Sequence record: MT968995.1
Length of the DNA stretch: 64,000 nt
Source of the DNA: Escherichia phage vB_EcoM_WL-3
Reading direction: 5' to 3' (one strand)
The first letter of the stretch is position 1. Each line of letters opens with the position of its first letter. The translations under genes and the position numbers were made by a program. Under the pieces are notes generated by a model. That model had not been told where the DNA came from and did no database searches. It worked only from the letters and a program-made list of their open reading frames with translations. This document shows, piece after piece, positions 7,491-11,831 of this stretch.

Positions 7491-7961
7491 TTAATCATGT
7501 TTCCACACCCCATCGGTATTTGACCAAAGTCGCTGATTATCTGATCCTCGCCACAGCTTTTTGGTCGGAAGATTTTTCTCATACTTCCCATCAATAATAA
7601 CATCAACATATTTAAGCATTTCTAGTTGTTTAATATCTTCAAATTTATATCCTGTCCACAACCAAATGCTTTTATTGGGATAAAGATTTTTTACTGTTTG
7701 AACAATGCAATGAACAACATCTCGGTTATCAGGATAGAGAGGGTCTCCTCCAGTTATAGTTAATCCTTCTATATAATCATTATTCAAACATTCAATTAAT
7801 TGTTCTAGTGTTTCACCAGTGAATGGAACGCCATTTCTAGCATTCCATGTTGATTTATTATAACACCCTTCACATTTATGCAAACACCCCGTAACGAAAA
7901 GAACGACCCTGCATCCAGGGCCATTCACAAAATCACAGGGATAAAATCTATCGTAATTCAT
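7491..7961 (-). CDS. nrdG: Anaerobic ribonucleotide reductase activating protein (radical SAM)
   Basis: 156 aa; CxxxCxxC cluster (CLHKCEGC); adjacent to nrdD. Confidence 0.93.
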   Translation of the reverse strand: MNYDRFYPCDFVNGPGCRVVLFVTGCLHKCEGCYNKSTWNARNGVPFTGETLEQLIECLNNDYIEGLTITGGDPLYPDNRDVVHCIVQTVKNLYPNKSIWLWTGYKFEDIKQLEMLKYVDVIIDGKYEKNLPTKKLWRGSDNQRLWSNTDGVWKHD

Positions 7962-9775
7962 TGGTGTTTAACCCTATGCATGATTTCTTTATTTTTGCCG
8001 AGATTAAATCCGCGTTCATTCGGATTTCCCAAATAACCACAAGTTCTTCTTATTGTGTTCATCTTTTTAGGATCAGTTTCTCCACAAATAGAACAAACAA
8101 ACCCGTTTTCAGTAGGAGTCATTTCATGGGTACTTCCGCATGTAAAACATTTATCTACTGGCATGTTAACACCAAAATAATCTAAATGTTGTGCAGCATA
8201 ATCCCATACAGCCTCAAGACCTTTTAGGTTATTTTTCATATCAGGAAGTTCAACATAAGAAATGTGACCACCTGTCGCAATGAAATGATATGGGGCTTCG
8301 CGAGAAATTTTTTCAAACGGAGTAATATTTTCTTCTACTGAAACGTGGAAACTATTAGTGTACCAGCCTTTATCGGTAACATCTTTTACACTTCCATATT
8401 TCTCAGTATCAAGTTTACAGAAGCGATAACAAAGGTTTTCAGCAGGTGTAGAATACAAGCTAAAAGCAAAACCAGTTCTTTCAGTCCACTGCTTAAGACG
8501 AGCATTCATTTTAGTTAAAATTTCCTGTCCAATATCACGACCGACAAGAATATTCAATTCGTGAATACCAATGTATCCCAAAGACACTGAACTTCTACCG
8601 TTTTTAAATAACTCAATTATATCGTCATCAGGTTTAAGACGAACCCCGAATGCACCTTCTTGGTAAAGAATAGGAGCAACAGTAGCTTTAACTCCTTTTA
8701 AGGAACTAATTCTACACATCAATGCTTCAAAACACAAATCCATTCGTTCATTGAACAATTCGGCAAATTTCTGTTCATTGAACTGTGTTCCAATATAAGA
8801 ATCTAGCGCAATGCGAGGAAGATTCAGTGTTACAACACCAAGATTATTACGTCCATCAAGAATTTCATTACCAGTCGAATCTTTCCATACACTCAAGAAA
8901 CTACGACAACCCATTGGAGAAACAGGAATAGATGAACCGGTGATAGCTTTATTGTTCTTAGCCGAAATGATGTCAGGATACATTCTTTTACTTGCACACT
9001 CTAGAGCAAGCTGCTTAATATCATAGTTCGGATCGTCTTTATAAAGATTAACACCTTCTTCAACGAACATAACAAGTTTAGGGAAAATAGGAGTTATCCC
9101 GTCACGACCAAGGCCTTTAATACGATTTTTCAGAATTGCTTTCTGAATCATTCGTTCAGTCCAGTCAGTTCCCATGCCAAATGTAATTGTTACAAAAGGC
9201 GTTTGTCCGTTTGAACTAAAGAGAGTATTTACTTCATATTCATAAGCTTGGAATGCATCGTATACGTCTTTTTCTGTTTTAGATTGTGCATAATTCAACG
9301 CATCAGCGATTTGCCATTTTTCTGCATCCTCAATATGTTTTGCATAGGTGCGTTTAACATAAGGAGAAAGGACTTTATCTACATTCGCAAAAGTCGTTCC
9401 ACCATATTGATGGGAAGCAACCTGTGCAGTAATTTGTGCCATAATTGCAGTAGCAACACCGATTGATTTAGGAGTTTCAATCTGTGCATTACCGAGCTTA
9501 AATCCGTTCTCAAGCATTCCTTTTAAATCTACTAAACAGCAATTAGTAAATGGAAGAGCAGGGGAATAATCAATATCATGGAAATGAATAATTCCGCTTT
9601 CATGCGCTTTCATAATAAAAGACGGGACCATATTTTTGGCAATGTGTTTAGACACAATACCAGCCATAAGGTCCCGTTGAGTTGGAAAAACACGAGAATC
9701 TTTATTAGCATTCTCGTTTAAAAGGTCTTTATTAGTTTTATGAATCAATCCTTCAATTTCTTTTTCAATTGTCAT
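7958..9775 (-). CDS. nrdD: Anaerobic ribonucleoside-triphosphate reductase, uninterrupted
   Basis: 605 aa single ORF; C-terminal glycyl-radical region and Cys-rich tail (CFTCGS...CSICG); no intron. Confidence 0.95.
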   Translation of the reverse strand: MTIEKEIEGLIHKTNKDLLNENANKDSRVFPTQRDLMAGIVSKHIAKNMVPSFIMKAHESGIIHFHDIDYSPALPFTNCCLVDLKGMLENGFKLGNAQIETPKSIGVATAIMAQITAQVASHQYGGTTFANVDKVLSPYVKRTYAKHIEDAEKWQIADALNYAQSKTEKDVYDAFQAYEYEVNTLFSSNGQTPFVTITFGMGTDWTERMIQKAILKNRIKGLGRDGITPIFPKLVMFVEEGVNLYKDDPNYDIKQLALECASKRMYPDIISAKNNKAITGSSIPVSPMGCRSFLSVWKDSTGNEILDGRNNLGVVTLNLPRIALDSYIGTQFNEQKFAELFNERMDLCFEALMCRISSLKGVKATVAPILYQEGAFGVRLKPDDDIIELFKNGRSSVSLGYIGIHELNILVGRDIGQEILTKMNARLKQWTERTGFAFSLYSTPAENLCYRFCKLDTEKYGSVKDVTDKGWYTNSFHVSVEENITPFEKISREAPYHFIATGGHISYVELPDMKNNLKGLEAVWDYAAQHLDYFGVNMPVDKCFTCGSTHEMTPTENGFVCSICGETDPKKMNTIRRTCGYLGNPNERGFNLGKNKEIMHRVKHQ

Positions 9776-10245
9776 TTTAAACTCTTTCTAAGCTGCTTCT
9801 TAAATGAAGCTATTAACTGTGTTTTGGTGTCAGATTCATTATATTCAAATCCTCTTTGAAGCATCTCGGCCATCATTTCCTCTTTTCCTAAACGAGAAAA
9901 TTCCTTTGATTTATCTCCAACAAAGTTAGGGTGAATATTATTTTGGGTGTAATCGGATTTTAAATAAGTAAGTAAATTTTCTAACCATTCAAGATAATCA
10001 ACACCTTGTCCCTTTAAGCCAGAACGATTAAATTTATGCTTCATTTGACCTTCTGCGGCATTGCAGAGATTACAAAGCAATCCACGTACCTTTCCTGCTT
10101 TTGGTCCATTTAATTCATGGTCATGATCAAGATGATTAGCTTGAACATCAGGATTTAGTTCTCGTTGGCAAATTAAACATTTACCGTTTTGTGCATCATA
10201 AAATTTCTGTTTTTCTTCTTTGTATAATTTGCCAGTCAATAACAT
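9772..10245 (-). CDS. 49: Endonuclease VII (Holliday junction resolvase)
   Basis: 157 aa, matches recalled T4 gp49 (MLLTGKLYKEEKQKFYDAQNGKCLICQRELNP...HLDHDHELNGPKAGKVRGLLCNLCN). Confidence 0.95.
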   Translation of the reverse strand: MLLTGKLYKEEKQKFYDAQNGKCLICQRELNPDVQANHLDHDHELNGPKAGKVRGLLCNLCNAAEGQMKHKFNRSGLKGQGVDYLEWLENLLTYLKSDYTQNNIHPNFVGDKSKEFSRLGKEEMMAEMLQRGFEYNESDTKTQLIASFKKQLRKSLK

Positions 10246-10284
10246 AATAAATACCCTTACCTTAAATAGATAAGGGTATTTATT
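10246..10284 (-). promoter_or_regulatory. Long A/T-rich hairpin sequestering the gene 49 ribosome-binding site
   Basis: 14-bp inverted repeat AATAAATACCCTTA / TAAGGGTATTTATT directly upstream of gene 49 ATG; fits the known hairpin control of T4 gene 49 translation. Confidence 0.5.
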
Positions 10285-10570
10285 ATTTTTAAGTATTGTA
10301 AAACATTCGATGCAATCGTTTATACTGTCGAATCATCTTTTTAGTAGGACGAGAATAGGTTCCTACGCAAGTGGTCATATGAGGGTCCGTAGAATGTCCT
10401 TTAATAAAAAGTTTCCAAACCTTACCGCCATTTAACTTTTCAGTATAAACCAATTCGGTTTTCATTAAAATGCCTTGTCAGAAAAAGAATTTTGAGTTTT
10501 TTCAAGTATTATAAAACATTTGATGCAATCGCTTATATTGCCGAATCATTTGGTCAGAAAAAGAATTTTG
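10283..10570. repeat. Imperfect direct repeat pair (about 50-70 bp each; 10283-10340 and 10496-10549 with flanking GTCAGAAAAAGAATTTTG copies)
   Basis: Two copies of ...AAGTATT(G/A)TAAAACATT(C/T)GATGCAATCG(T/C)TTATA(C/T)TG(T/C)CGAATCAT at roughly 85 percent identity. Confidence 0.6.
10289..10465 (-). CDS. Hypothetical small protein (58 aa) sharing a C-terminal tail with Pin
   Basis: Hand translation MKTELVYTEKLNGGKVWKLFIKGHSTDPHMTTCVGTYSRPTKKMIRQYKRLHRMFYNT; AAGG SD; tail lies in a direct repeat. Confidence 0.35.
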   Translation of the reverse strand: MKTELVYTEKLNGGKVWKLFIKGHSTDPHMTTCVGTYSRPTKKMIRQYKRLHRMFYNT

Positions 10571-10987
10571 TGTTTCAAGCCATTCAATATATTCTGCCGC
10601 AGCTTGCATCAGGTTACCTTCATAATCATCAATATCTTTTTTCAATGCCACTTTAGCTAATGCATATGAAATACGTTCACCTTGAAAAGCGGCTTTAGGC
10701 TTCTGAACAACTTGATTAGTTCGCTCTACAACTTCTTCAATTTCGCCATTTTCAACGGATTCAGTATTCCATAAGCACCAATACGTAATTGGCTTATCAT
10801 AGATATTAATAATCTTTCCGTCGGAAAGTTCAATTTCAATAATTCCAGTATCAGGTTCTATATCATCTTCACATTCTTTTGCAAGTTCACGAACTTTAAA
10901 GACAGTACCTGCACTAAGTTCCGGCCAGTAATTACACAGCCCTGTATCAACACGATTAATTCTAAACCACTTATCTACTGTAATCAT
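10502..10987 (-). CDS. pin: Protease inhibitor Pin-like protein
   Basis: 161 aa from internal ATG (track shows TTG); position between gene 49 and nrdC as in T4. Confidence 0.6.
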   Translation of the reverse strand: MITVDKWFRINRVDTGLCNYWPELSAGTVFKVRELAKECEDDIEPDTGIIEIELSDGKIINIYDKPITYWCLWNTESVENGEIEEVVERTNQVVQKPKAAFQGERISYALAKVALKKDIDDYEGNLMQAAAEYIEWLETQNSFSDQMIRQYKRLHQMFYNT

Positions 10988-11442: not shown

Positions 11443-11613
11443 TTAATTTCGCAATTTATTAAGTTCTTCATAATCAATCCAGGATTCTAATCCTGATGGC
11501 AAATCAGATTCAATTTCCCACAGAAGTTCTTCAATTTTATGAAGACGATCTAATTCTTCAGCTGGAATAGTAACCATTGATGGAGCTCTTGATACACTAA
11601 TATCGTAAATCAT
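11443..11613 (-). CDS. Hypothetical small protein (49.x region)
   Basis: Track ORF shortened to internal ATG abutting the upstream stop. Confidence 0.45.
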   Translation of the reverse strand: MIYDISVSRAPSMVTIPAEELDRLHKIEELLWEIESDLPSGLESWIDYEELNKLRN

Positions 11614-11615
11614 AT

Positions 11616-11831
11616 TTACCCCAGTTTGACCATACAATCGCCGTATTTCCACTTAGAAATAGACTTTTCGCCGTTAGAATAATAAACTTCGAGTTTAGCA
11701 CGATTATTTTTAATTTGAATAACCTTGGCTGTCATTAAAGTTCCATACCCATAGTAAACTGCAACTTCATCACCTACATATACCGCGCTTCCGCGGTAAT
11801 CATGGATATAATCAGTTCCTTCGAGCATCAT
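11616..11831 (-). CDS. Hypothetical small protein (49.x region)
   Basis: ORF track 71 aa; start overlaps nrdC stop. Confidence 0.55.
   Translation of the reverse strand: MMLEGTDYIHDYRGSAVYVGDEVAVYYGYGTLMTAKVIQIKNNRAKLEVYYSNGEKSISKWKYGDCMVKLG

Follow-up and report, generated by a model that had tools for sequence, protein, structure and literature searches.

The C-terminal tail of T4-type PinA read as a captured end of a neighbouring DUF7279 gene in Tequatrovirus genomes

Introduction

Between pin and gene 49 of Escherichia phage vB_EcoM_WL-3 (sequence record MT968995.1), a T4-like Tequatrovirus, lies a small open reading frame, here ORF X or simply X, the product of which has a body different from that of Pin and a C-terminal peptide nearly the same as Pin's, raising the questions of which gene the peptide belongs to and how two neighbouring genes came to end alike. 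The T4 protein PinA (gene pin, Uniprot accession: P07068; Pfam accession: PF10465) binds and inhibits the Lon protease of E. coli, according to a passage of PMC8835725 citing Hilliard et al. 1998; among Pins this activity is known for the T4 protein only. Within the window, as the whole 64,000-nucleotide stretch of DNA analysed is called here, pin is the 161-aa orthologue of T4 pin, with the same fusion junction and the same tail, and its product is 94% identical to a protein cluster with a T4-like sequence; what is new lies in no difference of the window pin itself, but in the reading of its last 15 residues as a fragment of a neighbouring gene.

Layout of the locus and its direct repeats

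The genes of the locus all lie on the minus strand (Table 1), and on the sense strand the order is pin, ending in segments A2 and B2 with the stop codon, six A, segment A1, X ending in segment B1 with its stop, a hairpin, and gene 49. A repeat finder returned a direct repeat of 65 nt at 82% identity (D1, 10272-10336 versus 10485-10549), the coding core of which is the 48-nt B1/B2 pair, identical at 42/48 positions; when 10100-10800 was shuffled 300 times with dinucleotide composition kept and the best 48-mer pair scored, the shuffles gave a mean of 27/48 and a maximum of 31/48. The two copies of 50-70 bp at about 85% identity noticed in a first-pass annotation of this DNA are accordingly real, although they do not flank the small frame as was stated there, B1 being that frame's own end and B2 the end of pin. 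Absent from that annotation is a second direct repeat, of 23 nt at 96% identity (D2, 10477-10499 versus 10553-10575).

Table 1. Features of the pin-gene 49 locus in the window
Feature	Position	Strand	Basis or remark
nrdD	7958-9775	minus	
Gene 49 (endonuclease VII), 157 aa	9772-10245	minus	Annotation of homologous genes
Gene 49 hairpin, 19-bp stem and 5-nt loop	10244-10286	minus	Fold, conservation
B1, native final 15 codons and stop of X (MIRQYKRLHRMFYNT, stop)	10289-10336	minus	
ORF X, 58 aa, DUF7279/phrog_3272 protein	10289-10465	minus	Profile matches, dN/dS, AF2 model, orthologue positions
A1 relic, 33 nt, read as final 10 codons and stop of ancestral unfused pin (TQNSFSDKAF, stop)	10465-10497	minus	Now non-coding
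Novel junction, 6-A run (including the A of the pin TGA) linking the B2 end to the A1 relic	10497-10502	minus	
B2, final 15 pin codons and stop (MIRQYKRLHQMFYNT, stop)	10502-10549	minus	Read as captured copy of a DUF7279 3' end
Fusion junction A/B in window pin	10549/10550	minus	
A2, pin codons E138-Q146 (..ETQNSFSDQ)	10550-10576	minus	Upstream copy of the 23-nt repeat
pin (PinA Lon-protease inhibitor), 161 aa, T4-type fused form	10502-10987	minus	Pin core 1-146 and 15-aa tail of putative DUF7279 origin

The 58-aa frame with its near-Pin tail is present between gene 49 and pin as had been described, X ending in MIRQYKRLHRMFYNT and Pin in MIRQYKRLHQMFYNT, with 14/15 residues equal and a shared tail peptide of MIRQYKRLH(R/Q)MFYNT. 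The two tails can be told apart as peptides (LHR/MFYNT in X versus LHQMFYNT in Pin), and peptides of the X body include LNGGKVWK and GHSTDPHMTTCVGTYSRPTK. The B2/A1 layout is not an assembly artefact, because its junction recurs in 113 independent phage records; the repeat is highly non-random and was left by a rearrangement at a gene boundary, of a kind well known in phage genomes.

ORF X as a conserved gene

ORF X encodes a small basic protein with a predicted compact beta-beta-beta-alpha fold, the best AF2 model (mean pLDDT 81.7; the remaining four models scored lower) placing three beta-strands before one C-terminal helix at aa 42-56, which corresponds to the shared tail. X matches Pfam DUF7279 (Pfam accession: PF23945) at 62.7 bits, above the gathering cut-off of 24.5, with residues 7-56 aligned to profile positions 1-53 of 53, the C-terminal segment included, and matches phrog_3272 over its full length (residues 1-58, E 3.4e-34). 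Orthologues with the same tail, following the pattern RPTK[KR]MIRQ[YF]KR[LF]HR.FY.., are found in Dhakavirus JS10, Gaprivervirus VR7, Mosigvirus phiC120 and SHSML-52-1, and Gelderlandvirus UTK0003; two of these phages, SHSML-52-1 and UTK0003, have no pin. In four genera X stands directly upstream of gene 49 and its hairpin, and in Gelderlandvirus UTK0003 it is placed only as adjoining 49.1; a position by pin or 49.1 and upstream of gene 49 is common to JS10, VR7, phiC120, SHSML-52-1, NBG2, PM105 and the window. As a member of DUF7279/PHROG 3272, a family of small proteins in T4-like phages, X is typical in its full-length match, its place beside 49.1/pin and its presence in five genera; the window copy differs in following a fused pin and a relic of a pin end, as against coupling to an unfused pin.

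The pairwise dN/dS of X is 0.07-0.23 across the genera compared, and for this reason X is regarded as an old, real gene under purifying selection and not, as first proposed, a frame created by the repeat. Its absence or disruption in all relatives had been named as the observation that would speak against it; the frame is intact in all six Tequatrovirus alleles read other than that of Ec_YwIITB1, and is present in other genera as well, and to that extent the earlier description holds. DUF7279 can be flagged as a conserved, selected small gene linked with pin and gene 49.

Homology searches found no homologue of X outside T4-like phages, an exhaustive HMMER search returning only four true homologue clusters; the long multi-stretch matches in that search (P0012, P0015-P0018) were set aside as unrelated repeat proteins. 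A fold search with the X model gave no match in the PDB at E <= 0.001 and a sole return in BFVD, the orthologue of phage S16. Against Pfam, X matched no nuclease family and only DUF7279, and no mention of DUF7279 was found in the literature searched.

Ownership of the shared tail

The first-pass annotation rightly recognised two proteins with different bodies and a common C-terminal peptide, and took that peptide to be Pin's own. Such a reading, in which the Pin tail was recently copied onto a small and possibly spurious ORF, would account for the near-identity of the tails and the high significance of the repeat, and several lines of comparison nevertheless make it very improbable. The window Pin matches PF10465 (Inhibitor_I24) at 157.5 bits, above the gathering threshold of 27, over aa 4-140; tail residues 147-161 fall beyond the model, phrog_2167 spans Pin aa 1-146, and Pin residues 146-161 match positions 43-58 of phrog_3272. 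In an alignment of the 161-, 148- and 137-aa forms of Pin the tail is confined to the 161-aa forms. The 148-aa Pins of Tequatrovirus, a large set, end in ..SFSDRAF, and Mosigvirus Pins (136-137 aa) end in ..YLERRLS, without the tail; the ends compared in NBG2, Sa45lw, JS10 and VR7 read ..FSD(R/E)AF before the stop, the Pin pieces of JS10 and VR7 ending in ..FSDEAF and ..FSDEVF.

The tail is accordingly best read as native to X, with Pin as the recipient, because the DUF7279 and phrog_3272 models include it while Pin models stop at 140-146, because X with the tail occurs in other genera and in phages with no pin at all, and because unfused Pins of 148 or 137 aa lack it. The purifying selection on X, its tail in five genera, and the greater divergence of the two window copies from each other than from their own orthologues likewise weigh against a Pin-derived tail. 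Unfused Pin appears to be the ancestral form, because the 148-aa Tequatrovirus type and the Dhakavirus and Gaprivervirus ends (FSD(R/E)AF, stop) and the 137-aa Mosigvirus forms are all tail-less, and T4 PinA of 161 aa would then consist of Pin(1-146) joined to X(44-58). In this light the final 15 residues of PinA are a captured fragment of a lost neighbour gene, a point not found in the literature searched; the PinA of Lon studies is then a chimera, which corrects a small piece of T4 biology, and since natural tail-less Pins exist, tail-less constructs offer a natural comparison for work on Lon inhibition.

Three architectures of the locus

Base-by-base alignment distinguishes three layouts, A-B in T4, A-X-B in NBG2 and A-B-A-X-B in the window. 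In the unfused type (NBG2, Sa45lw) pin ends GAC CGA GCA TTT TAA, its stop overlaps the ATG of X as TAATG, and X ends in B. The T4 type runs from ..TCTGACCGA directly into ATGATTCAG.. and is without the 137 nt that extend from GCATTTTA through X codon 43, a segment made up of the final two pin codons, the stop, and X codons 1-43. The window type, also read in PM105, ES12, SG1 and L14, has AAAAA after the fused-pin stop and then ACTCAAAATTCTTTTTCTGACAAGGCATTTTAATG, which in the old pin frame reads TQNSFSDKAF and stop, with the TAATG overlap to an intact X kept; because this relic encodes the old pin end, the X copy of the window derives from an unfused-type arrangement.

The frequency of these layouts was estimated by searching junction-spanning 60-mers and X DNA (at least 90% identity) in 50,697 phage records. 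The fused A/B junction is present in 365 of them, including T4, RB51 and RB68, and the duplication junction (B2/A1) in 113, from GenBank; X DNA at 90% identity or more is present in 177 Tequatrovirus records, T4-type genomes matching through the tail only. Together, the two junction counts and the X DNA count imply about 251 T4-type, 113 window-type and about 63 unfused-type records. The A/B junction lies at the identical base in every genome read, which, with a 60-mer common to 365 records, fits a single fusion event that later spread. X is dispensable in the laboratory, as T4-type phages, T4 included, are without it. These three sets of records, together with the Mosigvirus parallels described below, form a well-populated natural series that shows short coding repeats creating, fusing and deleting small genes.

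Origin of the window layout

The best explanation overall, held with good confidence, is an unfused ancestor followed by a deletion fusion and then an unequal exchange. The ancestral order would have been pin (about 148 aa, ending ..FSDRAF and stop), X (58 aa, ending ..RPTKKMIRQYKRLHRMFYNT and stop), the regulatory hairpin and gene 49, with pin and X overlapping at TAATG. To judge from comparison of the layouts, a single deletion of 137 nt would first have brought X residues 44-58 in frame directly behind Pin residue 146, giving the 161-aa T4 PinA at the cost of X; base-by-base comparison reveals no evident microhomology at the endpoints of this deletion. An illegitimate unequal exchange may then have occurred between a fused-pin genome and a genome still carrying pin and X, at a common CTTGAAA/A-run situated just past the B stop in one partner and inside the pin 3' end in the other, CTTGAAA being shared by the pin 3' end (GGCTTGAAACTC) and the B-stop sequence (ACTTGAAAAT). 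Its product would be a fused pin (A2-B2), a poly-A joint, the 33-nt relic A1 and intact X (B1), followed by the hairpin and gene 49, and the deletion and the exchange would have left the A and B repeats as their scars. The window layout most likely arose by microhomology-mediated unequal recombination. A crossover inside CTTGAAA predicts three A at the joint, but six are observed in the window, PM105, ES12 and SG1, and 11 in L14; the extra A may reflect a joint elsewhere in the A-run or later slippage, and the 11-A run of L14 suggests the latter.

Window B2 differs from the single B of T4 and from that of NBG2 at 2/48 positions each, and from its own B1 at 6/48, and the longest uninterrupted identity is 10 nt between the B copies and 18 nt between the A copies; X alleles are mosaic among genomes (SG1, Sa45lw), allele distances being weak evidence of parentage and only suggestive between routes. 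Because B2 is nearer the B of T4 and NBG2 than B1, with an identity run between B1 and B2 of only 10 nt, the comparison speaks more for a union of diverged lineages than for a recent duplication within one genome or continuing gene conversion, under which the paralogous copies should be mutual closest relatives (6/48 versus 2/48 is the reverse). Of the original proposal of a recent partial duplication or gene conversion, the part that survives is that the repeat records a rearrangement and not chance; recency and conversion do not agree with these distances, and the proposed direction is reversed, Pin having apparently captured the tail of X in a fusion that T4 also carries.

Duplication may instead have come first, A-X-B being tandemly duplicated to A-X-B-A-X-B, the first X body deleted, and the T4 type derived later by B-B recombination, in which case the T4 type would descend from the window type. 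This order of events is judged unlikely: it arrives at the same final layout and at the same single A/B junction in T4 and window types, and would spare X function from loss at the moment of fusion, but it needs three events for the T4 type against one, leaves B2 nearer the single-copy B of T4 and NBG2 than its own B1, and has no two-X intermediate identified in its favour, X DNA having matched at 266 places in 265 records, one of which has a second, uninspected place.

In the layout left by the preferred deletion and exchange, a crossover between the two B copies would remove 213 bp and restore the T4 layout, and one between the two A copies would remove 76 bp and restore the unfused layout; the arrangement is probably fairly stable, because the longest identity runs are only 10 nt (B) and 18 nt (A). 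The layout, found in 113 GenBank records, is a case of ordinary phage mosaicism.

Shuffling of modules mediated by PeSL elements has been described in T4-type phages (Arbiol et al. 2010, PMC2839356; Comeau et al. 2014, PMC4122927), the second of these papers making no mention of pin or gene 49. The likeness is that small non-essential genes are gained and lost by short-repeat recombination in plastic regions; the difference is that the repeats of the window are the coding 3' ends of pin and X and not promoter-plus-terminator cassettes, the combination of a strong sigma-70-like early promoter and a terminator stem-loop that characterises such cassettes being absent from the locus. Entry of X as a mobile cassette into a T4-type pin, either as a PeSL-type module or as an insert associated with a homing endonuclease, splitting off the last 15 codons, has next to no probability. 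The region is indeed a plastic part of T4-like genomes, and T4 has homing endonuclease genes nearby (mobC, I-TevII), but an insert of 137 nt could give this result only by supplying a stop codon, a start codon and 43 codons precisely in the frame of the pin tail, and the X tail is conserved where pin is absent; both forms of the model were rejected for want of a sigma-70-like promoter between pin and gene 49 and of a nuclease domain in X, which matches DUF7279 alone in Pfam.

Translation and transcription of X

In the unfused type the bases before the X ATG must encode Pin ..DRAF and stop (GACCGAGCA), and the start of X is presumably coupled to the termination of pin. The relic before X reads GACAAGGCA or GACAGGACA in all five duplicated-type genomes read, and each of the five has an AAGG or AGGA Shine-Dalgarno sequence 7 nt before the X ATG (AAGG in the window), where the three unfused-type genomes read, in which the spot still codes for Pin, have CGAG. 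The window X appears to be uncoupled from pin and to use a Shine-Dalgarno sequence that evolved in the non-coding relic, and the window phage would be expected to make both the 161-aa Pin and X, with a common predicted C-terminal helix. No sigma-70-like promoter was found in 10246-10501, the nearest lying at 11056-11028, upstream of pin; because none stands between pin and X, X is probably transcribed together with pin.

The hairpin before gene 49

In T4 a hairpin hides the ribosome-binding site (RBS) of gene 49 in long early transcripts, and late transcripts that start within its 5' arm cannot form the stem. An RBS-sequestering hairpin ahead of T4 gene 49, with a late promoter embedded in it, was reportedly described by Barth, Powell, Trupin and Mosig in 1988. 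The window hairpin folds at -23.4 kcal/mol, as compared with -9.3 +/- 2.7 for shuffles (z -5.2), none of which folds as well, and its stem takes in the gene 49 Shine-Dalgarno sequence as well as the first two bases (AU) of the start codon. The 5' arm has the late-promoter-like AATAAATA, the same as in T4 at that position, where Mosigvirus has the full TATAAATA. Across four genera the hairpin block hardly varies, and its only difference from T4 is two extra bases in the 3' arm.

Same position, essentially the same sequence, and a stem over the Shine-Dalgarno sequence and start codon indicate that the window hairpin is the known T4 gene 49 structure and nothing new, and its regulation is presumably that of T4; it had earlier been identified correctly, with a stem given as 14 bp, shorter than that in Table 1. 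RBS sequestration in T4 late genes is attributed to Barth et al. 1988 (PMID 2974005) in a passage of PMC2988022 (reference 60). Rfam gave nothing above the gathering score for the hairpin, and a match to ohsC_RNA (34 bits versus 50) was taken as chance.

Related rearrangements in other phages

A fusion of the same kind occurs in a Mosigvirus-like metagenomic contig (Logan SRR20302901, contig L015, 1501-1926; protein P0046), where Pin is fused in frame to the last nine residues of X (..YLERR joined to FHRDFYNVY) at an ACGTTT microhomology, with the X body deleted and the hairpin and gene 49 next; it is independent of the Tequatrovirus fusion and a parallel event. Wherever a rearranged variant still has gene 49, it has also kept the block formed by the B end, the hairpin and the start of gene 49; this block seems to anchor the rearrangements, since gene 49 is essential and cannot lose its hairpin and promoter.

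Further variants were observed at this locus. The Mosigviruses phiC120 (L006, 606-776) and JN02 (L014) have a second DUF7279 paralogue upstream of pin, with the paralogues flanking pin. SHSML-52-1 (L007, 1201-1371) has no pin and a single chimera, with the body of the upstream paralogue and the ..FYNIY end of the downstream one, as would be expected if pin had been deleted when the similar paralogue tails recombined. Protein P0045 (191 aa) is a read-through fusion of an upstream DUF7279 paralogue and Pin, and protein P0038, on a 1.5-kb contig, has Pin residues 1-83 followed by a Peptidase_S24 (LexA-like) C-terminus, perhaps through chimeric assembly. In JS10 (L005, 729-1204) and VR7 (L009, 756-1201) the Pin homology is split, a 57-aa C-terminal-like ORF (FSDEAF or FSDEVF, stop) coming first; JS10 then has a 100-aa Pin N-terminal-like ORF, a swapped order, and VR7 an apparently unrelated 90-aa ORF in its place.

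In Ec_YwIITB1 (L012, PQ356294.1 47478-47738) a 17-nt copy of the pin 3' end (ATTCTTTTTCTGACCAA) lies inside X before the tail, and the resulting frameshift turns X into an ORF of 86 aa that continues across the hairpin and into gene 49. Considered as an intermediate of the A/B junction, this allele was rejected, its junction occurring in 1/50,697 phage records; it is more simply a rare recombinant or a sequencing error.

Possible function of the tail

The in-frame captures span 15 residues in Tequatrovirus and nine in the Mosigvirus-like phage. One speculative and rather improbable reading is that the basic C-terminal helix of DUF7279 is a portable functional module, contacting for example Lon or another host partner, which Pin captured in frame at least twice independently; if true, DUF7279 proteins would act in the host-proteostasis pathway of Pin, and Lon inhibition by T4 PinA would depend in part on its tail. 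In a related reading, in-frame capture may have been selected because it keeps translation ending a few bases before the gene 49 hairpin. The AF2 model of the 161-aa Pin (mean pLDDT 58, near 50 in the tail) is too poor to place the tail.

Other variable sites near the locus

At 7491-9775 (minus strand) of the window, nrdD is an unbroken 605-aa ORF directly abutting nrdG, and both the group I intron of T4 nrdD with I-TevII and the mobC found between nrdG and nrdD in T4 are absent. At 11443-11831 (minus strand), two small overlapping ORFs (69 and 71 aa) take the place of T4 gene 49.3 (102 aa), the first of which is similar to the C-terminal portion of a Mosigvirus protein of 118 aa (..EELLWEIESDLPSGLESWIDYEELNKLRN); the plastic region varies at this place too.
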